NCBI GenBank assembly: GCA_046598045.1
Contig: JBKJJJ010000113.1
Location: 800 to 64,799, forward strand
Length of the DNA stretch: 64,000 bases
Direction of reading: 5' to 3'
Origin: Candidatus Eiseniibacteriota bacterium
Lineage (GTDB): Bacteria; Eisenbacteria; RBG-16-71-46; DASYSL01
Part shown: positions 26,536 to 64,000 of the stretch, one piece after another
How the letters are laid out: each line of letters starts with the position of its first letter
How positions within the stretch are numbered: position 1 is the stretch's first letter
Notes under the pieces: generated by a model
What the model was told of the DNA's origin: nothing
The model's database searches: none
Seen by the model: only the letters and a program-made list of their open reading frames with translations
Program-made: the position numbers and the translations under genes

Positions 26536-27102
26536 ATGACCCGGCGCCGAATGCTCGAAATCGCGGTGGCCGCGGGCGTGTTGCTGTTACTGCTCGCGGT
26601 CTTCCTCGTCCGGCCGACCGCGCGCCACACCAGCGCGCCCGCCACCGTGCTGTTCGAGCGCGTCCCGGGGTCGCCCCCCGACTTCGGCAGTGGCGCCTAT
26701 CAATCCCTCATCGCCCTCTCTCCCGACTCCGCGCGCGCGCTCGTGCTCTATCCGGTCGAGTTCGAGGAGCGCGCCGACCTCTATGTCACCGATCGCGCGC
26801 GCGGGGACGGCTATCGCATGGTGCTGGTCGACTCCCTGCACCGGGAGGACTCGCCCAAGGCCGTCGGCTGGCTCGACGCGTCGAAGGCCTGGGTGATCGT
26901 CGGACACCAGTTCGGGACGGTGTCGCCCGGGGGCGACCTTTACGCGCTCGACCCGGGGACCGGGACGGCGGACTGCCTGTGGGCCTCACCGGACTCGGAT
27001 CGCACGCAGGCAGTAGGGTTTACGCCGCCCCACCAGGTCCGGCTCGTGGTCTTCGACGCCAACCTCATGAATCCCCGGGATTCCGTCGCCACGCTGCCCT
27101 GA
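26536..27102 (+). CDS. Hypothetical membrane-anchored or secreted protein
   Basis: An N-terminal hydrophobic helix (IAVAAGVLLLLLAVFLV) is followed by a soluble approximately 150-aa domain. No family recognised. Confidence 0.5.
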   Translation: MTRRRMLEIAVAAGVLLLLLAVFLVRPTARHTSAPATVLFERVPGSPPDFGSGAYQSLIALSPDSARALVLYPVEFEERADLYVTDRARGDGYRMVLVDSLHREDSPKAVGWLDASKAWVIVGHQFGTVSPGGDLYALDPGTGTADCLWASPDSDRTQAVGFTPPHQVRLVVFDANLMNPRDSVATLP

Positions 27103-27105
27103 AGG

Positions 27106-27135
27106 TTGACCGATCTGACGACAGCGTGCTAATTT
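27106..27135 (+). promoter_or_regulatory. Candidate promoter for tRNA-Gln (TTGACC-N18-TAATTT)
   Basis: Hexamers at 27106-27111 and 27130-27135, 14 nt upstream of the mature tRNA 5' end. The 18-nt spacing is slightly long. Confidence 0.35.
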
Positions 27136-27149
27136 ACGCACTCCCCGAT

Positions 27150-27223
27150 TGGGGAGTAGCGCAATGGTAGCGCAGCGGCCTTTGGAGCCGCCCGTCCAGG
27201 TTCGAATCCTGGCTCCCCAGCCA
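27150..27223 (+). tRNA. tRNA-Gln (anticodon TTG), CCA encoded
   Basis: Acceptor TGGGGAG/CTCCCCA, anticodon stem GCGGC/GCCGC with loop CTTTGGA, T-loop GGTTCGAATCC, discriminator G and CCA. The U1 start is typical of tRNA-Gln. Confidence 0.9.
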
Positions 27224-55695: not shown

Positions 55696-56822
55696 GCGGC
55701 CTCCCGCGCGGCGGCGATCTCGGCACGGCAGTCGGGGTCGTGCTCGCTCTGCGCCGCTGCGGCGAGCGCGCGCGCCGCGGCGGCGCCGCCGATCCGCCCG
55801 AGCGCCCACGCGGCATGGCGACGCACGAGCGGCGCGTCGTCGGAGAGCGCCCGCTCCAGCGCCGGGGCGTCGGCCTCCAGGCCGCGGTTGCCGAGCGCGA
55901 CGCAAACGTTGCGCAGGAAGCCGTCGCGCCCCGCGCGCAGGACCGCGGTGCCGGTGAACGCGGCCTTGAACGCCTCGGCGTCGAGCCGGAGCCAATCCGC
56001 GAGCGGCGTCTCGAGCAGGCCCGGCCGGGCGCGCACCTCGGCCGATTGCGCGGCCTGCGCGAAGCGGTTCCACGGGCAGGCGTCGAGGCAATCGTCGCAG
56101 CCGAAGATGCGCTGCCCGACCAGCGGGCGCAGCTCGGCGGGGATCGCGTCCGAGAGCTCGATCGTCAGGTAGCTGATGCAGCGCCGCGCGTCGACCTGGT
56201 AGGGGGCGGGGATCGCGCCGGTGGGGCAGGCGTCCATGCAGCGCGTGCAGGTGCCGCAGCGCCGCACCGCGGGTGGATCGGGCTCGAGCGCGACGTCCAC
56301 CACGAGCTCGCCGAGCATCGCCCAGTTGCCGGCCTCGGGCGTGATCACGTGCGCGTGCTTGCCGATGAAGCCCACGCCCGCGCGCTCGGCCCACGTGCGC
56401 TCGAGGAACGGCCCGGTGTCGACCGAGGTGCGCGCCTCGCAGCCGGGCCACTCCGCGCGGGCGAAGCGGGCGAGCGCCTTGAGCCGCGAGCCCACCGCGC
56501 GGTGATAGTCGCGGCCCCTCGCGTAGCGGGCGATTCCGGCGGCGTTGCCATCGGGTTCATCGGGGCGGTGGTAGTTCCAGGCGACGGCGACGAGCGAGCG
56601 GGCTTGCGGCCAGAGCGTGCGTGGGTGGCTGCGCTCCGCGACCATGCGTTCCAGCCAGTCCATCTGCCCGTGGTCGCCGCGCGCGAGCCAGGCACGGTAG
56701 TGGGCCGCGCCTGCGTCGGCGGCGGGATCCGGCGTATCGAGCCGCGCGATGCCCGCGCCGACGAAGCCGAGGCGGAGCGCCTCCCGCTTGATCGCCGCGC
56801 TCCGGGCGCCCTCAGGCTGCAG
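55692..56822 (-). CDS. queG: Epoxyqueuosine reductase; the start is unresolved
   Basis: GQMDWLER, two 4Fe-4S motifs (CGTCTRCMDACP and CDDCLDACP) and C-terminal HEAT-like repeats. The first ATG is at 56663. The conserved N-terminus (AIKREALRLGFVGAGIARLD...YRAWLARGDHGQ) continues in frame upstream with no ATG/GTG/TTG. The upper bound given is an in-frame CTG. Confidence 0.8.
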   Translation of the reverse strand: MQPEGARSAAIKREALRLGFVGAGIARLDTPDPAADAGAAHYRAWLARGDHGQMDWLERMVAERSHPRTLWPQARSLVAVAWNYHRPDEPDGNAAGIARYARGRDYHRAVGSRLKALARFARAEWPGCEARTSVDTGPFLERTWAERAGVGFIGKHAHVITPEAGNWAMLGELVVDVALEPDPPAVRRCGTCTRCMDACPTGAIPAPYQVDARRCISYLTIELSDAIPAELRPLVGQRIFGCDDCLDACPWNRFAQAAQSAEVRARPGLLETPLADWLRLDAEAFKAAFTGTAVLRAGRDGFLRNVCVALGNRGLEADAPALERALSDDAPLVRRHAAWALGRIGGAAAARALAAAAQSEHDPDCRAEIAAAREAA

Positions 56823-58524
56823 GCGCGGCGCTCCCCAGGTAACCGACGACCAGCACGGTGATGTCGTCCGCTTGCTGGTAGCCGGCGGCGAATGCGTGCA
56901 CCTCGTCGATCACCAGCGTGACCAGGTCGTCGGCGCAGATCGGCCCGGCGGCCTTGAGGCAGACCTCGAGGCGCCTCTCCTCGAACTGCTCGGTGGTCTT
57001 GTCCTCGGCCTCGGTCACGCCGTCCGAGTAGAGGATCACGCGGTCGCCCGGGGCGAGCGTGAGCGCGTCCTCCTCGTAGGCCAGCCCCGGGAAGGCGCCG
57101 ACCATGAGCCCGCCCTTGTCGAGCTTCCGAAGCTCGCCGCCCGCCGTCAGCAGGTACGCGGGGTTGTGTCCCGCGCTGGTCAGCCGCATGTGGCCCTCGG
57201 CGTCGATCACGCCGTAAGCGATGGTCGCGAAGCGCCGGTCGACGCTGCGCCTGAGCAGCGTCTGGTTGAGGCGCGCCATGGCCTCGCTCGGACCGGTCAG
57301 CGTCTGCGCCGAGGATGCGAGGATGCCCTGAATCGCGGCCGCGAGCAGCGCCGCGCCGGGGCCCTTGCCCGAGACGTCGCACAGGGCGAAGCCGAGTCGG
57401 CCGTCGGGGAACTCGATGTATTCGTAGAAGTCGCCGCCGATGGCGCGGCAGGGGATGGTCGTGCCCGCGAGCTCGATCGCCGCGGTCGAGAACCGGCGCG
57501 GCGGCAGCAGCGCGCGCTGGATCTCGGCCGCGACCGTGAGCTCGCGCTCGAGCTTGATCTTCTCCTCCGAATCGCGCACCAGGCGCGCGTTCTCGATCGC
57601 GACCGCGGCCTCGGCGGCGAGCTGCTCGAACGTGGCGTGGAGGTCGGCGGCGTCGAGTTGCCCGAGCCCCGCGCTGTCGACGTAGAGCACGCCCATCGGC
57701 TGCTTCGCTTTGACCTGCGACGCGGCGTCGCCGGTATCGAACTCGGCCGTGCGCACGCGCGGCAGCGGGGCACACAGGATCGAGCGGATCTTGAGGTCGA
57801 TCTGCGTGTGGCGCGAGTCGGGGACCTCGTTCTCGTAGACCAGCTTGCCGGTCTCGAACACCTGGCTCGGCACCGACTTGCTGAGCTTGAAGTCGCGCCC
57901 CGGCAACGACTGGTTCTTGCGGCCGCGCGCCATGCGCACGTCGAGTTCACCCGCCTGGTTGACCATCATCACGAATCCGCGTTCGGCGCCGGCGAGCACG
58001 ATCGCGTGGTCGACCACGATCGCGAGCACTTCCTCGAGCACGCGGCCCTCGACCATCGCGCGCAGCGCCTGTCCAAGCATGCCCATCGCGCCGCGGGGCC
58101 GGGAGGCGGCGGCCGACTCGGCGACCGCGGCGACCGCGGCGGCCGCGGCCGCCTGCGCGCCGCCGCCCGTGAGCGTGCGCATGTCGTCGCGGATGATCTC
58201 GTGCCTGCCGGTCGACATCTCGGCTGAGACCAGCTGGAACTCGACCGGCGGGTGGTTCGGCGAGCCGAGCTGGATCTGGTCACCATGCACGAGCGCGTGG
58301 CGCTCGATCTTCTCGCCGTTCAGGTACGTTCCGAAGCGCGAGTTCGTGTCGGCAACGTAGAAGCGCTCCCCCTCGCGCGTGAGCTCGGCGTGATGGCGGG
58401 AGACGTCCGCCTCGGCGAGCACGAGGTCGTTCTCGTGGTGGCGGCCGATGCGGAAGGGAAAGCGGGCCACGGGAACCGTGCGAAAGCCCCCGGGCTGGGG
58501 AACGACGAGTCGGGCTTCATCCAT
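56812..58524 (-). CDS. FHA - GAF - PP2C (SpoIIE-type) serine phosphatase
   Basis: FHA: FRIGRHHENDLVLAEADVSRHHAEL...FYVADTNSRFGTYLNG. GAF-like middle region. PP2C: EIQRALLP...GGDFYEY...FALCDVSGKGPGAAL...ILYSDGVTEA. Confidence 0.85.
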   Translation of the reverse strand: MDEARLVVPQPGGFRTVPVARFPFRIGRHHENDLVLAEADVSRHHAELTREGERFYVADTNSRFGTYLNGEKIERHALVHGDQIQLGSPNHPPVEFQLVSAEMSTGRHEIIRDDMRTLTGGGAQAAAAAAVAAVAESAAASRPRGAMGMLGQALRAMVEGRVLEEVLAIVVDHAIVLAGAERGFVMMVNQAGELDVRMARGRKNQSLPGRDFKLSKSVPSQVFETGKLVYENEVPDSRHTQIDLKIRSILCAPLPRVRTAEFDTGDAASQVKAKQPMGVLYVDSAGLGQLDAADLHATFEQLAAEAAVAIENARLVRDSEEKIKLERELTVAAEIQRALLPPRRFSTAAIELAGTTIPCRAIGGDFYEYIEFPDGRLGFALCDVSGKGPGAALLAAAIQGILASSAQTLTGPSEAMARLNQTLLRRSVDRRFATIAYGVIDAEGHMRLTSAGHNPAYLLTAGGELRKLDKGGLMVGAFPGLAYEEDALTLAPGDRVILYSDGVTEAEDKTTEQFEERRLEVCLKAAGPICADDLVTLVIDEVHAFAAGYQQADDITVLVVGYLGSAAPAA

Positions 58525-58592: not shown

Positions 58593-59138
58593 ATGCCCCT
58601 GCGCCCGCCCCAGTTCCGATTCTGCCTCGCCTGCGGCGGCCCCCTCGCGCCGGGCGGCCTGTGCCCACGCTGCGGCGAGGCGCGGCTGCCCCGGCCCACC
58701 CCGGCGGTTGCGGTCGCGGTGGTCGAGGCCAGCCAGGTCCTCCTGGTCAAGCGCCGCTACGCCCCCATGGTCGGGCACTGGGCGCTCCCCGCGGGCTACC
58801 TCGAGGGGCACGAGGACCCCTGGCGCACGGCCCGGCGCGAGGCGCGCGAGGAGACCGGACTCGAGATCCGCCCGACCCGCCTCATGGGCGCGTTCCCCGG
58901 CGGGGGGCAGGACGGGCCGGTCGTGCTGCTCGTGTTTTCGGGCACGGTCGAGGGCGGCCGCCTCGAGGCCGGCGACGACGCCTCCGAGGCCGCGTTCTTC
59001 CCCCTGACCCGGCTTCCGACCCCATTGGCGTGGGGTCCGCACCGGGTGGTGCTCGCCGCCCTCCTCCAGCAGCACGGCCTGCCCGTTCCGGACAGCCTGA
59101 TTGGACCAAAAACCTTGCCCGGGAAGGGATTGCCCTGA
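58593..59138 (+). CDS. NUDIX hydrolase with an N-terminal zinc ribbon
   Basis: CLACGG...CPRCG is followed by the Nudix box GHWALPAGYLEGHEDPWRTARREAREETGL. Confidence 0.85.
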   Translation: MPLRPPQFRFCLACGGPLAPGGLCPRCGEARLPRPTPAVAVAVVEASQVLLVKRRYAPMVGHWALPAGYLEGHEDPWRTARREAREETGLEIRPTRLMGAFPGGGQDGPVVLLVFSGTVEGGRLEAGDDASEAAFFPLTRLPTPLAWGPHRVVLAALLQQHGLPVPDSLIGPKTLPGKGLP

Positions 59139-59147
59139 AAATATCAG

Positions 59148-59176
59148 TTGCATTGGATTTCTTGGCTCCCTAGTGT
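59148..59176 (+). promoter_or_regulatory. Candidate sigma70-type promoter (TTGCAT-N17-TAGTGT) for the mqnD leader RNA
   Basis: Hexamers at 59148-59153 and 59171-59176, in an AT-richer patch just after the NUDIX stop. Confidence 0.3.
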
Positions 59177-59182
59177 TGTTCT

Positions 59183-59520
59183 TCAACCTCAGCTCGGGTG
59201 CCCGGAAAGTACTTTCCCGATAAGATTTGGGATACCGGACACTCAGGCCAACGGCCATGACCGCGTGCCTCGCTGACTCTGGATTCGCCTCAAGGATGAT
59301 GCCAGGATGAGCTCGCTTCGGCGGGCTTTAGGAGCCCGTTTCGGGGATGGACTTCGGGGGGAGCCTCCCCGAGCGGCTCCGCTTCTCTTCGGAGTATGGC
59401 CCGGAGATTCGGGTCATGCGGATGCTGAGCCAGGACCCGTTTCGGGGGGAACGGTCCCGGCCGGCTCCTTTCCGAGCCGCAACTCGGTTACATTGGCCTC
59501 CTTCCAAGGAGGCCTTTTTC
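59183..59520 (+). ncRNA. Unclassified structured RNA, either the 5' leader of mqnD (candidate riboswitch/attenuator) or a stand-alone sRNA. The 5' end is inferred only from the candidate promoter.
   Basis: The 382-nt gap has no credible ORF. It contains many short GC stems with UUCG/UUUC loops, a duplicated 12-mer cccgtttcgggg, mutually exclusive helices near the 3' end and a terminal terminator. Confidence 0.4.
59495..59519 (+). terminator. Intrinsic terminator GGCCTCC-ttccaa-GGAGGCC plus TTTTT; its 3' arm contains the AAGGAGG Shine-Dalgarno of mqnD
   Basis: Read directly. The T-run ends 2 nt before the ATG at 59521. The 5' arm (CCTCC) is an anti-SD. Confidence 0.7.
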
Positions 59521-60393
59521 ATGTCCGACGCCCCGACCACGACGACCACGACGACCGCGACTCCCGTGCTGCGCGTGGGCCACAGCCCCGATCCCGACGA
59601 TGCGTTCATGTTCTACGGACTCGCCCACGGCCACGTGAGGATCCGCGACTACCGGATCGAACACGTGCTCGAGGATATCGAGTCGCTCAACCGCCGCGCC
59701 GCCGCGCGCGACCTCGAGGTCACCGCAATCTCGGCGCACGCCTACCCGCGCGTCGCCGACGCCTACCACATCCTCGCCACCGGCGCCTCGATGGGCCGCG
59801 GCTACGGTCCCGTGCTCGTCGCCACCAAACCGATGACGCTCGCGGACCTGCGTGGCAAGCGCATCGCGATCCCCGGCCCCTGGACGACCGCCGCGCTCCT
59901 GACCGCGATCTACGTCGATGGCCACACGCCGGTCGAGGTCATGTTCGACGACATCCCGCGCGCCGTCCTCGCGGGCGAGGTCGACGCCGGCGTCGTGATC
60001 CACGAGGCGCAGCTCACGTACGCCGCGATGGGTCTGACCAAGATCGTGGACTACGGTGAGCTCTGGGCCTCGGAGACCAACGGCCTGCCGCTGCCGCTCG
60101 GCCTCGACGTCGTGCGCGCGGACCTCGGCCTCGAGCTCTGCCAGGAGATCAACCGCGGCCTTCGCGAGTCCATCCTCTACGGCCGCGCCCACCTCGACGA
60201 CGCGATCGCCTACGCGCTGACGTTCGGCCGCGGGCTCGACAAGGCGCTGGGCAAGAAGTTCGTCGGCATGTACGTGAGCGAGGACACAGTCGACATGGGC
60301 CAGCCCGGGCGCGAGGCGCTGCGGCTGCTGTTCCAGCGCGGGGCGGAGAAGGGGATCATTCCGGCCGTGCCGGAGCTGGTGGTGATCGACTAG
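59521..60393 (+). CDS. mqnD: Menaquinone (futalosine pathway) MqnA/MqnD-family protein, most like 1,4-dihydroxy-6-naphthoate synthase
   Basis: LRVGHSPDPDDAFMFYGL...HVLEDIESLNRRA...EVTAISAHAYP...GPVLVA...VIHEAQLTY is a periplasmic-binding-protein-like fold motif set of MqnD. An unusual poly-Thr run (T8) lies at the N-terminus. Confidence 0.75.
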   Translation: MSDAPTTTTTTTATPVLRVGHSPDPDDAFMFYGLAHGHVRIRDYRIEHVLEDIESLNRRAAARDLEVTAISAHAYPRVADAYHILATGASMGRGYGPVLVATKPMTLADLRGKRIAIPGPWTTAALLTAIYVDGHTPVEVMFDDIPRAVLAGEVDAGVVIHEAQLTYAAMGLTKIVDYGELWASETNGLPLPLGLDVVRADLGLELCQEINRGLRESILYGRAHLDDAIAYALTFGRGLDKALGKKFVGMYVSEDTVDMGQPGREALRLLFQRGAEKGIIPAVPELVVID

Positions 60394-60398
60394 GTCTG

Positions 60399-60896
60399 GT
60401 GATCGACCAGGTTCCCAGGAGGCGCGGCGTGTACGACGACTCGCAGCTCCCGTTCTCGATCATGACGTTCATAGCGATGTGCGCGATCCTGTTCGCGATC
60501 GCGCTCATCCCGACCATTTTCTTCTTCCTCACGATGCAGCGCACGCTGGCGCGCTGCGCCGCCTCGTCGCGCACGATGACCCCCGGGCAGGTCTGGCTCG
60601 GGCTGATCCCGATGTTCAACCTGGTCTGGTCGTTCTTCCTCGTGAGCGCGCTGTCGGACTCGTTGCACAACGAGTTCACGCGCCGGGGCATCGTCGAGGA
60701 GCCGCAGCCCGGGCGCACGCTCGGCCTCGCCTACGCGATTCTCGGGCTCCTCTCCGCGGTGCCGTTCGTGGGCTTCCTCACAGGCATCCCCGCGCTCGTG
60801 TGCTGGATCCTGTACTGGGTCAAGATCGCGGACCTCTCGGGGAAGATCGCGCTGCCTTGGGTGGAAGGGGCTGCGGCTGCTCCGGCGGGTGCGTAG
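60399..60896 (+). CDS. Small integral membrane protein, paralog 1 (about 4 TM)
   Basis: Shares about 45% identity with the next gene across the core L.RCA..SRT..P..VWL.L.P..N.VW.F..V.ALS.SLH.EFTRRGIV.EP.P. GTG start (or ATG 60462). Confidence 0.6.
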   Translation: MIDQVPRRRGVYDDSQLPFSIMTFIAMCAILFAIALIPTIFFFLTMQRTLARCAASSRTMTPGQVWLGLIPMFNLVWSFFLVSALSDSLHNEFTRRGIVEEPQPGRTLGLAYAILGLLSAVPFVGFLTGIPALVCWILYWVKIADLSGKIALPWVEGAAAAPAGA

Positions 60897-61013: not shown

Positions 61014-61457
61014 TTGAGCCTGCCCAACCTGGCCTGGTTGAAACCCTTCCTCCCGCTGCTTCCGTTCCTGTTGGCGCTCGCGCTGCTGCCGACGATCCTC
61101 TTCCTGCGCATGCTCGAGCAAACCCTGACGCGCTGCGCTCCCGAGTCGCGCACGTTGCCGCCGCGACGGGTCTGGCTGATCCTGGTCCCGCTCTGGAACG
61201 TCGTGTGGCTGTTCGTCGTCGTGAACGCGCTCTCCAACTCGCTGCATCGCGAGTTCACGCGCCGCGGCATCGTCGCCGAACCCCGTCCGGCGCACCGCCT
61301 CGGAACCGTGTACGCGATCCTGATGGCGATGGCGATCATCCCAGTCCTGGGGATCCCGGCATTCCTGGCGGGCGCACTGGTCGGACTCCGCTACGGGATT
61401 CGGATCAAGGCGTACTCGGGCATGCTCGCCACGCCCTTCGTCGCCGAGGCTGCCTGA
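61014..61457 (+). CDS. Small integral membrane protein, paralog 2
   Basis: TTG start. The conserved core is the same as paralog 1, with a hydrophobic N-terminal segment and two C-terminal TM segments. Confidence 0.6.
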   Translation: MSLPNLAWLKPFLPLLPFLLALALLPTILFLRMLEQTLTRCAPESRTLPPRRVWLILVPLWNVVWLFVVVNALSNSLHREFTRRGIVAEPRPAHRLGTVYAILMAMAIIPVLGIPAFLAGALVGLRYGIRIKAYSGMLATPFVAEAA

Positions 61458-61874: not shown

Positions 61875-62297
61875 CTACTCCCCGAGGATCTTGATCAGCA
61901 CCCGCTTGTCGCGCTTGCCGTCGAACTCGCCGTAGAAGATCTGCTCCCACGGACCGAAGTCGAGCTTGCCCGCCGTGATCGCGACCACGACCTCGCGCCC
62001 CATGATCTGGCGCTTCAAGTGGGCGTCGGCGTTGTCCTCGCCGGTGAGGTGGTGCTTGTACGCGGTCGGGCTGGGGTCGTGCGGGGCGAGCTCCTCGAGC
62101 CACTTCGTGAAGTCCTGGTGCAGGCCCGATTCGTCGTCGTTGATGAAGACGCTCGAGGTGATGTGCATCGAGTTCACGAGGCAGAGCCCCTCGCGCACGC
62201 CGCTCTCGTCGATCGCAGCCTGCACGTCGCGCGTGACGTTGACGAACGCGGTGGTCTGTTTGGTGTGAACGACGAGCGCCTTGCGGAAGGACTTCAT
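61875..62297 (-). CDS. yjbQ: YjbQ/UPF0047 family protein (secondary thiamine-phosphate synthase-like)
   Basis: [11 protein letters not shown]...[32 protein letters not shown]......Y.H...[10 protein letters not shown]......[25 protein letters not shown]. Confidence 0.85.
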
Positions 62298-63037
62298 CGA
62301 TATTGAACCTTGAGCCTTCCCCACGAGACGTACGGCGCCGGCACGGCGCCCGCAGAATACGAAACGGAGCTGATCCCAAGATCGATCGGGGAACCGTCGA
62401 TCGCGTAGGCAACCCCACTGACGCTGAGATTCATGGGCCGATCGTCCTCACAACACAGGCCCGGGCCGGTCGCCAAGGCGCATGAGCCGCTGAGGTCGAA
62501 CTGAATACTCCAGAGGCCGGTCCGGACCTGGGGATCGAGTTGCCAGCTCTGCGGCCTCGAAGCGCGGAGGGCGAGGATCCCGTTCGAGCTCCCGCAACTG
62601 GACGGAACGCAGAACGAGGAGTCGCGGCTTGTGGTGAAACTCTCAAAACTCGTCTGGCCGATGGGCGAGGCACATCCCGCGACGGCGGGTGCGAACTGAG
62701 CGGCCACCCGTCCCGGCCCCTGGCACCCGCCCGGTTCGAACTGCCAGGCGGGGGTGACCGTGGTGGCATCGGCCCCCGAGCAGGCACAAGCATAACTGGG
62801 GCTCGACTTGATCCGAATCTGCAGCTCGAATCCGGTGACGGCGTTGGGAAGGCCCTGGACGAACACGACGAGATTCGCCAGTCGATCCGTGCTCACCACC
62901 GGATGTGCCGTCTCGATCGGGGAACAGGAATTCCACGACAGGCCGACTGCCGGGGCGGCTCCGACCGGACGGGGACAGCAGATCACTGCAGCGGCGAGCA
63001 TACCGAGGAGAGGCGCGCAGCGGTTGCGAACATGCAT
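62294..63037 (-). CDS. Hypothetical secreted Cys-rich protein (247 aa), lower GC
   Basis: Signal peptide ([12 protein letters not shown]). 15 Cys in total, most of them after the signal region. The C-terminus is ...[12 protein letters not shown]. Its stop overlaps the yjbQ start (ATGA). Confidence 0.6.
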
Positions 63038-63087: not shown

Positions 63088-64000
63088 TCAACCCGTCGCC
63101 AGGATCTCGTACAACGTCGAACGCTGCGCCGGCTCGAATCCCGACTCGCGGATCAGCGTCTTCGTCTCCTCGACCGTGGTCATGTTCACGTGGCCGGTCG
63201 CCTTGTGCACGTTTTCCTCGAACAGCGTGCCGCCGAAGTCGTCGGCGCCGAAGTGCAGCGAGACCTGGCCGGTCTTCTTGCCCTCGGAGAACCACGTCGC
63301 CTGCACGTGGTCGAAGTTGTCGAGGATCAGCCGGCTCGCGGCGAGTGTGCGCAGGTAGCGCGACGGCCCGGCGTTGCGCGCGACCCACTTGCGCAGCGGG
63401 GTGTTGTCGCGCTTGTACGACCAGGGGACGAACGCGGTGAAGCCCGCGTTGCCCTCGGCGTGCGCCTTGTCCTGCAATGCGCGGATCGAGTTCAGGTGCT
63501 CGAGCACGTCCTCGGCGGTCTCGACGTGGCCGTACATCATGGTCGCGGTCGAGCGCAGGCCGATCTCGTGCGCCACGCGGTGCACGTCGAGCCAGGTCTC
63601 GGGCCCGCCCTTCTTGGGCGAGATCTTCTTGCGCACGCGCTCGGACAGGATCTCGGCGTCGCCGCCGGGCAGCGAGACCTGGCCGGCGCCCTTCAAGGCA
63701 GTCAGCACGCCACGAATGTCCAGGCCGGAGACTTCGACCATCTGCTGGATCTCGGGCGCCGAGAAGAAGTGCGGCGTGATGTCCGGGAAGCGCTCACGCA
63801 CCGTGCGCACCAGCCGAGGGTAGAACTCCCACGCGATCGCCGGGTTGAGCCCGCCCTGCAGCAGCACGGTCGTGCAGCCGTATGTGCGCGCGCGGTCGAA
63901 GTGCTCCATGACCTGCTCGAGCGTGAGCGTATAGACGTCCTCGCCGACGTAGGACGGCTTGCGGTAGAACGCGCAGAACGTACAGTCCACCGTGCAGACG
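63088..64000 (-). CDS. Radical SAM menaquinone biosynthesis enzyme, MqnC/MqnE family (cyclic dehypoxanthinyl futalosine synthase or aminofutalosine synthase). The N-terminus lies outside the window.
   Basis: CTVDCTFCAF (CxxxCxxC), TVLLQGGLNP, PHFFSAPEI, LPGGDAEIL, STATMMYGHVET and GFTAFVPWSY. The frame is open to base 64000. Confidence 0.85.
   Translation of the reverse strand, partial: VCTVDCTFCAFYRKPSYVGEDVYTLTLEQVMEHFDRARTYGCTTVLLQGGLNPAIAWEFYPRLVRTVRERFPDITPHFFSAPEIQQMVEVSGLDIRGVLTALKGAGQVSLPGGDAEILSERVRKKISPKKGGPETWLDVHRVAHEIGLRSTATMMYGHVETAEDVLEHLNSIRALQDKAHAEGNAGFTAFVPWSYKRDNTPLRKWVARNAGPSRYLRTLAASRLILDNFDHVQATWFSEGKKTGQVSLHFGADDFGGTLFEENVHKATGHVNMTTVEETKTLIRESGFEPAQRSTLYEILATG

Follow-up and report, generated by a model that had tools for sequence, protein, structure and literature searches.

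In a 64,000-nucleotide (nt) stretch of DNA from a Candidatus Eisenbacteria lineage (contig JBKJJJ010000113.1; the whole stretch is called the window below), the menaquinone biosynthesis gene mqnD is preceded by a non-coding region that appears to be a structured regulatory RNA. We consider it likely, at a probability of approximately 0.6, that this region is a 5′ leader of mqnD mRNA about 340 nt in length, that it represents a new RNA family, and that it gates mqnD expression in cis. This reading is carried by a promoter found at the homologous place in relatives, by a core fold that covaries among them, by a hairpin that encloses the Shine-Dalgarno (SD) sequence of mqnD, and by a strict linkage of the RNA to this gene. 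A preliminary description, made from the window alone, had pointed to a dense series of hairpins and proposed that they form the expression platform of a riboswitch or attenuator. Every feature that it listed is present, including GCTCGC-TTCG-GCGGGC, CTCCG-N8-CGGAG, and GGCCTCC-ttccaa-GGAGGCC plus T5. Its proposal holds in part, in that the SD hairpin and the conserved leader support it, whereas the evidence from competing helices does not. Of the conditions that it named as refuting, none that could be checked applied: the region is conserved and covaries in relatives, has no Rfam match and carries no coding signal. The features of the locus are as follows.

58593..59138, plus strand: gene for a zinc-ribbon NUDIX hydrolase (PF00293, 8e-20), the upstream neighbor in all loci with flanks
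59148..59176, plus strand: promoter P1, with −35 box TTGCAT, a 17-nt spacer, −10 box TAGTGT and an A/T-rich stretch before it; conserved at the homologous place
59184..59310, plus strand: 5′ domain of the leader, with a conserved start (YCAACC/CCAGCGG) and a middle that varies in length and differs between two subgroups
59307..59470, plus strand: extent of the match to covariance model R1 (H1-U1-V1-H3-U2 core), 140.6 bits, E 5.5e-30, the sole match in the window
59311..59326, plus strand: hairpin H1, GCUCGC-UUCG-GCGGGC, with compensatory changes in 5 of 6 pairs
59331..59380, plus strand: U1, a long hairpin of 50 nt with small bulges and its apex at 59352-59363, as predicted by RNAalifold
59377..59394, plus strand: variable hairpin V1 (CUCCG/CGGAG), whose CUCC is common with the base of U1
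59396..59417, plus strand: hairpin H3, AUGGCCCG-GAGAUU-CGGGUCAU, with 99.4% of cells paired
59420..59468, plus strand: U2, a second long hairpin built like U1, with apex UUUC[GGGG]GGAA at 59440-59451, followed by a U-rich stretch
59472..59487, plus strand: spacer hairpin V2 (CCGAG/CUCGG), which varies in sequence and length among loci
59489..59495, plus strand: conserved TACATTG (TAnAnTG), with T, A, A, T and G as invariant columns in 24 sequences
59495..59519, plus strand: SD-sequestering, terminator-like hairpin GGCCUCC-UUCCAA-GGAGGCC (stem-loop 59495-59514), then U5 (59515-59519)
59521..60393, plus strand: mqnD (1,4-dihydroxy-6-naphthoate synthase; PF02621, 1.9e-73), into which the leader runs

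For comparison we collected 28 related loci from contigs that encode MqnD proteins of the same tight similarity group, from a genome collection, and from one metagenome scan with the most conserved 20-mer. The SD sequence of mqnD, AAGGAGG at 59506-59512, lies in the 3′ arm of the last hairpin, and a single C separates U5 from the AUG at 59521. Each of the 25 loci whose sequence extends to the start codon has a hairpin that encloses the SD, with free energies of −10.9 to −19.1 kcal/mol, and the stem of this hairpin differs by subgroup: GGCCUCC/GGAGGCC in that of the window, GCCUCCG/CGGAGGC in the other, and GGGCG/CGCCC around the SD in locus L083. The hairpin is followed by at least four consecutive U residues in 21 of the 25 loci. 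A terminator scan called positions 59495-59514 of the window, with 8 pairs (6 of them G-C) and then TTTTT, and made the same call in loci L085 and L130; by sequence, this GC-rich stem-loop with an immediate U-tract is a predicted intrinsic terminator. Hairpin-plus-U ends do occur in this organism, since the signal recognition particle (SRP) RNA gene of the window ends in a stem followed by T6. The earlier view that the final hairpin both masks the SD and resembles a terminator is therefore upheld by the relatives, for the masking in all 25 loci and for the terminator in most members. Moreover, the interval between hairpin and AUG is too short for any promoter. Because it spans just 6-7 nt, mqnD mRNA either contains the SD hairpin or starts inside it.

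At the other end of the leader, the promoter-like TTGCAT-N17-TAGTGT of the preliminary description has been kept in evolution. Sequences of the form TTGnnn-N17/18-TAnnnT occur at the corresponding position in all 24 relatives for which upstream sequence is available, and the TTG, TA and T columns of the alignment are invariant while the surrounding bases vary, although a consensus promoter scan made no call at P1 (3 of 6 matches per hexamer). The tRNA genes of the window share this type of promoter (TTGACT-N18-TAAGAT and TTGACC-N18-TAATTT), and these canonical TTGAC-N18-TAnnnT elements argue that the organism uses sigma-70-type promoters. Transcription from P1 is predicted to begin at approximately 59183-59185.

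Between these two ends, the most conserved part of the leader is a series of hairpins dominated by U1 and U2. The sequence of U1 is GGAG-C-CCGU-U-UCGGGG-AU-GG-A-CUUC[GGGG]GGAG-CC-U-CCCCGA-GCGG-CUCC, capped by a CUUC/GGAG stem with a GGGG loop, and GGGG forms the apical loops throughout the 27 sequences. In a plain MAFFT alignment, 91.4% of cells are in standard pairs and 12 pairs are changed on both sides. The corresponding values for a model-fitted alignment, which leans towards the structure, are 95.6% and 15 pairs with compensatory changes. With neither alignment was the percentage paired reached by any of 500 shuffles, and sliding the 3′ partners by 1-3 columns left 34-60% (MAFFT) or 34-58% (model-fitted) of cells paired. 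Within the model-fitted alignment, H1 is 99.4% paired even though its stem and loop sequences are widely different among loci, and U1 is 98.5% paired. Pair 170/185 of H3 varies among C-G (15 sequences), U-A (9) and U.G (2). Compensatory changes occur in eight pairs of U2, for example 215/226 (C-G 13, U-A 13), 213/228 (G-C 14, C-G 10) and 209/229. This covariation in the apex stem of U2 (C-G 13, U-A 13) supports the CUUC/GGAG stem with its GGGG loop. Even in the variable hairpin V1, the fifth pair changes from G-C in the window to A-U in L001 and to U.G in L119.

Some features of the preliminary description take on a different meaning in light of this fold. The stems with UUCG-type loops are real, but the true conserved core consists of the long U1 and U2 hairpins, in one or two copies, of which that description recorded only fragments. 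Likewise, the exact duplicate cccgtttcgggg (59335-59346 and 59436-59447) exists, but this 12-nt string is no commoner in the window than expected by chance and is not an independent repeat; it forms the 5′ strand of the U1 upper stem and of the U2 apex stem, and so belongs to the homology between the two units. The two competing helices reported at 59462-59487 are also present in the window, but they are not conserved as a pair. The CGGCTC/GAGCCG helix (59462-59479) is specific to the window, and only the second helix has counterparts, as the variable spacer hairpin V2. RNAalifold additionally proposed long-range helices that close the 5′ and 3′ parts of the leader, and these were not adopted because they differ between the two subgroups and are weakly supported.

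Folding energies agree with a structured plus-strand RNA. The minimum free energy of the plus strand is −176.9 kcal/mol, compared with −152.7 ± 6.4 kcal/mol for dinucleotide shuffles (z −3.78; 0 of 100 as good), and the minus strand gives a z of −2.71. By our count, approximately 140 of the 1352 cells in the model-fitted alignment are G.U pairs, two of which are invariant in the apexes. Since such pairs would read C.A on the other strand, the plus strand is the RNA strand. Constraint on the leader is also evident from comparison with its neighbor: in every member U1 shares 86-100% identity with the window copy, whereas in the neighboring mqnD the four-fold degenerate third positions reach 47-78% identity. 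Judged from these alignments, the leader is under strong purifying selection.

This selection does not appear to act on a protein. The gap between the NUDIX gene and the MqnD gene is non-coding, and the open reading frames (ORFs) that cross it are the usual stop-poor frames of GC-rich DNA. Leader ORFs differ among loci in frame, start and end, and none is conserved together with a ribosome-binding site. The sole peptide string common to them comes from the invariant U1 nucleotides and lacks an SD, and the indels between close relatives (1, 2 and 10 nt) are not multiples of three. Protein coding was thus rejected, both for an in-frame mqnD extension from 59347 and for the other leader ORFs, as these are unconserved in frame and extent, in agreement with the earlier statement that the gap holds no credible ORF. 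A leader-peptide attenuator was rejected as well, as no conserved short ORF carries a ribosome-binding site.

The linkage to mqnD is strict. The gene order NUDIX-RNA-mqnD is found in every locus with enough flank, while genes outside this trio vary: some loci have an FHA-GAF-PP2C gene and others an RND transporter, and the downstream genes are diverse. Thus the RNA was never found apart from mqnD in the loci and scans examined here, though the outer genes on both sides have been reshuffled. One contig of 1018 nt (L101) might have been taken for a case of the RNA without mqnD. However, its leader is nearly identical to that of L121 and leaves the shared sequence within spacer V2 to enter the 3′ end of an unrelated ORF, and it is probably a chimeric assembly. 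A dispersed repeat or mobile element was also considered and rejected. Of 40 stretches recovered by the 20-mer metagenome scan, 19 are at NUDIX/mqnD loci and share the whole motif together with flanking similarity, and the other 21 are chance 20-mer matches inside unrelated sequence. There were also no matches among viral contigs and no second copy of the motif within the window.

The covariance model R1, which was built on the H1-U1-V1-H3-U2 core, scores 27 loci at 77-154 bits and a shortened variant, L130, at 65 bits, whereas a search with R1 of 79 mqnD loci from other lineages and phyla yielded nothing at E <1. MqnD homologues themselves form a tight group at 67-95% identity and then fall to at most 64% in other phyla. 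The nearest genome record is a Candidatus Eisenbacteria metagenome-assembled genome (MAG), whose MqnD is 89% identical to that of the window. A second Eisenbacteria MAG (L041) lacks the RNA and has a gap of just ~60 nt upstream of mqnD. A twin motif, YTTCGGGGGGAR, is present in exactly two copies per full member, while other mqnD loci have only one single chance match. The RNA family is therefore confined to one lineage of Candidatus Eisenbacteria, within which its conservation and covariation are both evident. By R1, other mqn genes nearby in the window carry no such leader; only mqnD does.

The shortened variant is informative about which parts are essential. Locus L130, whose MqnD is 72% identical, has P1, the 5′ domain, H1, a single U1, a U5 stretch, TAGACTG and the SD hairpin. 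V1, H3 and U2 are missing, and U1 is its only unit. Because L130 keeps just these elements, one unit plus the SD hairpin constitutes the irreducible core of the leader.

A possible mechanism is suggested by the distribution of short complementary segments. GGAG occurs at the 5′ bases of U1 and U2, in both apexes, in the 3′ arm of V1 and in the real SD, and CUCC occurs at the 3′ bases of U1 and U2 and in the 5′ arm of the last hairpin. In this hairpin the loop opens in every case with pyrimidines including CC (listed as UUCC, UCCC, CCCC and CUUC), so that the composite CUCC-N0-3-YYCC is complementary to the apex GGGGGGAG. The best upstream partner of the anti-SD arm and loop is a U1 or U2 apex in 17 of 25 members, and an apex is among the top three in 24 of 25. 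The duplex between apex and anti-SD is predicted at −13 to −18 kcal/mol, which is comparable to the SD hairpin itself. No other conserved anti-terminator emerged from the leader alignments or the partner scan. We therefore propose the following switch. Transcription would start at the sigma-70-type promoter P1, near 59183. By default expression would be off, with the apex stems closed and the SD hairpin formed, so that ribosome binding is blocked; in most members the last hairpin would probably also terminate transcription. In the on state, the apex of U1 or U2 (GGGGGGAG, a mimic of the SD) would open and pair with the anti-SD arm and the C-rich loop, which would free the SD and prevent the terminator from forming. 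The two states may be roughly balanced, and a putative effector, either a metabolite or a protein, that recognizes the invariant U1 and U2 hairpins would shift the balance between them.

Several observations weigh against this interpretation or limit what the evidence can carry. The complementarity between apex and anti-SD is partly trivial, because any run of G residues complements an anti-SD, and it shows no true covariation. In U1, 16 of 20 pairs never vary, and the case for its fold consequently comes from thermodynamics and from covariation in the homologous U2. A few changes between two subgroups account for much of the covariation overall, and the cell counts thus overstate the number of independent events. 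The hairpins are arranged in a string and form no compact junction, and the distribution is narrow, being limited to one lineage. Four loci (L001, L083, L084 and L091) have no good U-tract after the last hairpin, yet all of them still enclose the SD; this survival of SD enclosure after loss of the U-tract argues for translational control rather than mere termination. Finally, the conserved TAnAnTG just upstream of the last hairpin might serve as −10 box for a second promoter, which would yield an mqnD mRNA with a free SD and make the upstream RNA a separate product. This element lies at the same place in all 25 loci, with the variants TACATTG, TACACTG, TAGAGTG (L081) and TAGACTG (L130), and its conservation at positions 1, 2, 4 and 6 is a pattern like that of a −10 box. 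Neither a −35 box, an extended −10 box nor an RNA pairing partner for it was found in the window or the homologous loci.

The last of these points leads to an explanation that we regard as improbable, in which P1 drives an independent small RNA of ~290-335 nt that ends at the U-rich tract of U2 or at the final hairpin. Under this alternative, mqnD would be transcribed from a weak promoter whose −10 box is TAnAnT (59489-59494), its mRNA would start inside the hairpin with the SD free, and its linkage to the RNA would reflect compaction and shared ancestry. P1 and the predicted terminator-like hairpin at 59495-59519 do give the RNA its own promoter and terminator, as a stand-alone small RNA should have. 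The promoter is strong, conserved and preceded by an A/T-rich upstream element, the RNA ends 2 nt before the AUG in a canonical terminator-like hairpin, U7 directly follows U2 in L083 and L084, and TAnAnTG resembles a −10 box in its conservation. Conversely, TAnAnT is preceded by no TTG −35 box at 16-18 nt and has no extended −10 box, the window's subgroup lacks a purine 6-8 nt downstream of TAnAnT, the RNA is never away from mqnD despite the reshuffling of outer genes, and SD enclosure is kept in the four loci where the U-tract is lost. It is less probable still that the leader is a constitutive structure without sensing, whether as an element for mRNA stabilization or processing or as a fixed brake on mqnD translation. 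Such a role would suit a string of very stable hairpins for which no alternative fold is proven. However, units of 50 nt that are near-invariant, far above neutral sites, and a terminator that immediately precedes the sole start codon are both hard to explain without a regulated alternative state.

If the leader gates mqnD in cis, as we favor, the nature of its effector can be narrowed only tentatively. A protein is one possibility, although we hold it to be a minority explanation. The invariant U1 and U2 hairpins would bind an RNA-binding protein that stabilizes or disrupts the SD hairpin, and candidates by type are a dedicated regulator, a CsrA-like global regulator that recognizes GGA motifs, or an enzyme of the pathway. 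The stems of U1 and U2 are invariant in sequence while other stems covary freely (5 of 6 pairs in H1), which is typical of sequence-specific hairpin recognition. In addition, both copies have the same apex, GGA occurs in apexes, linkers and the SD, and rsmX is matched weakly, below threshold (E 3.6). Nevertheless, no candidate protein was identified, the rsmX match (14.5 bits versus a gathering score of 56) comes mostly from the H1 stem-loop, the GGA motifs are mostly paired rather than looped in the predicted fold, and the single unit of L130 indicates that a dimeric site is not required. A metabolite riboswitch, which is a special case of the favored reading, seems rather unlikely. In that case U1 and U2, perhaps with the 5′ domain, would be the aptamer, and a futalosine-pathway intermediate, a quinone-related compound or a nucleotide would decide the fate of the terminator/SD hairpin. 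The core is a conserved, covarying domain in the 5′ leader of a biosynthetic gene, it has no coding signal, and all flanked members lie directly upstream of mqnD and hence are associated with one pathway, as expected for riboswitches. The combined terminator and SD hairpin at the 3′ end also fits. Tandem similar hairpins occur in some riboswitch classes, and several futalosine intermediates carry a nucleoside moiety; both facts count for this reading. So does the conspicuous gap that quinone coenzymes form in reviews of riboswitch ligands, which report no riboswitch for them and suggest their soluble precursors as plausible ligands instead (PMC9971707, PMC10043782). The leader nevertheless lacks a multi-helix junction or pseudoknot with conserved unpaired nucleotides, its invariant bases are mostly inside stems, a single unit suffices in L130, no conserved covarying anti-terminator helix was found, and the leader is very narrowly distributed and is carried by mqnD and not by other nearby mqn genes. 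A string of hairpins with invariant stems fits a protein site or a competition between SD and anti-SD at least as well as a metabolite aptamer.

The preliminary description could not assign the region to a known class, and database searches give the same outcome. At gathering scores, Rfam 15 matched only the SRP RNA and two tRNAs in the whole window. At E values up to 10, the segment 59000-59650 gave chance-level matches to mir-3596, rsmX and snR76, all at or below 15.7 bits, and five homologous loci had no sub-threshold family in common. ARAGORN found no tRNA or tmRNA in the region. Our literature search returned no RNA element described for mqnD, futalosine or menaquinone genes, which agrees with the earlier remark that RNA control of these genes had not been reported.

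Among known systems, the leader is similar in layout to dual-OFF riboswitch platforms, in which the terminator holds the SD: a long 5′ leader of a biosynthetic gene has conserved structure upstream, the 3′ arm of its last hairpin is the SD, the 5′ arm is the anti-SD, and a U-tract stands just before the start codon. Unlike these platforms, it has no aptamer match in Rfam, no junction-type aptamer and no covarying anti-terminator, and its conserved bases are within stems. Guanidine-II (mini-ykkC) RNAs contain in tandem, within the 5′ untranslated region, two near-identical hairpins whose apical tetraloops are invariant, and may control access to the SD. The leader also has tandem look-alike hairpins, but these are ~50 nt in length with GGGG on a CUUC/GGAG stem, whereas those of guanidine-II are ~16 nt with ACGR loops. 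Furthermore, the identical, G-only loops of the leader cannot kiss by Watson-Crick pairing, and a one-hairpin variant exists in L130. Membership in the guanidine-II class was rejected, given GGGG apical loops in all 27 sequences and the lack of a match in Rfam, which should cover this class. RNAs that bind CsrA or RsmA (RsmX/Y/Z) are comparable in having repeated GGA hairpins, one GGA that overlaps an SD, and a terminal Rho-independent terminator. In contrast to them, GGA in the leader is mostly paired in the predicted fold and the conserved units greatly exceed a CsrA site in length. With paired GGA in the apexes and an rsmX score so far below the gathering score, the leader does not belong to the CsrA/Rsm type.

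Two further comparisons are with RNAs that act by other means. As with riboswitch-terminated or leader-derived small RNAs, of which SreA/SreB of Listeria are examples, the combination of a strong promoter with a terminator immediately ahead of the gene would yield an abundant, stable RNA of ~335 nt that might also act in trans, but the G-rich apexes of the leader would pair with C/U-rich sequences and not with SD sites. RNA thermometers such as ROSE and fourU likewise hold the SD in a hairpin directly before the start codon. However, the SD stem of the leader has 7-9 GC-rich pairs and a stability of −11 to −19 kcal/mol, which is much greater than that of the melting type, and it is preceded by ~300 nt of conserved structure that a thermometer does not need. 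We rate the leader as a new RNA family of a familiar regulatory kind; it lacks the defining features of every named family tried.

The main interest of this RNA derives from the pathway concerned and from its small, testable core, and is tempered by its narrow distribution. With a 50-nt hairpin, a 25-nt SD/terminator hairpin and the natural minimal variant L130, the locus is a well-delimited candidate that can be synthesized and tested directly. It is conceivable, though we would not expect it, that U1/U2 and the SD hairpin are the first RNA sensor known for menaquinone synthesis by the futalosine route, and a new riboswitch class in which a soluble intermediate acts through competition by an SD mimic; if this were true, the ligand might be the MqnD substrate or nucleoside-bearing futalosine, for example. 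If the effector were instead a protein, or the RNA a separate small RNA, it would still be a new RNA family, but mainly of local interest because it is confined to one lineage. In either case it offers a first look at gene regulation in Candidatus Eisenbacteria, which to our knowledge are represented only by MAGs.

Additional observations concern the less conserved parts of the leader. The 5′ domain contains the motif GAAAAnAUUU...CCGG and a hairpin, CCCGA/UUGGG, at 59216-59231. The former coincides with the 14-nt palindrome GGAAAGTACTTTCC (59204-59217) of the preliminary description, which is present, but only its AAA-N4-TTT is invariant and the remainder differs between the two subgroups. 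The motif GAAAAGATT lies 20-45 nt downstream of P1 in all members except L130, where it is found inside the promoter spacer (L130:500-540, TTGCAA-cGAAAAGATTctggga-TAGTAT; compare 59204-59231 of the window). Because of this location within P1 in L130, the GAAAAGATT motif may be a DNA operator rather than an RNA element.

In the second subgroup (L085-L089, L092, L114, L120 and L123), a branched insertion of 60-75 nt occupies the place of V1 between U1 and H3. Its inner hairpin has a conserved loop, GAGUUCCG, on a covarying stem (GUGAC/GUCAC, GUGAU/AUCAC, GAUGA/UCAUG). A string like UUCCGCGU is repeated in this subgroup just before TACACTG. Two other loci have the reverse of the arrangement seen in other members: at L083:2850-2915 and L084:2850-2915, U7 follows U2 directly and the SD hairpin has no U-tract. 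A simple terminator scan of L083 made no call for U2 plus U7, the upper stem of which is irregular, and the claim of a terminator there rests on reading the sequence.

The identity of MqnD is supported by its homologues, which are annotated in their sources as 1,4-dihydroxy-6-naphthoate synthase, and by matches in the PDB to AF1704 (9e-75) and to TTHA1568 (3e-57), the second of which carries the deposition title 'menaquinone biosynthetic enzyme'. A zinc ribbon of the form CxxC...CxxC lies at the N terminus of the NUDIX protein, which matches the NAD(+) diphosphatase NudC weakly (38.7 bits, below the cut-off of 158); its gene is strictly linked to the RNA and mqnD. Upstream of this gene, a large divergent gene for an FHA-GAF-SpoIIE protein (PP2C phosphatase) at 56812-58524 on the minus strand is kept in many relatives, though not in all. 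Downstream of mqnD on the same strand lie genes for two small membrane proteins that are paralogues (60399-60896 and 61014-61457), the first with a weak match to DUF4328, and these genes may share the transcription unit of mqnD. A gene of ~148 codons is also found 3′ of mqnD in several relatives. Farther downstream, on the opposite strand, are a YjbQ/UPF0047 gene (61875-62324) and a radical-SAM/CofH_C gene of the MqnC/MqnE type (63088-64000), whose position downstream of mqnD indicates that futalosine genes are clustered here. Elsewhere in the window, the genes for tRNA-Ala, SRP RNA (71 bits) and tRNA-Gln lie within 1892-2119 and 27100-27223.

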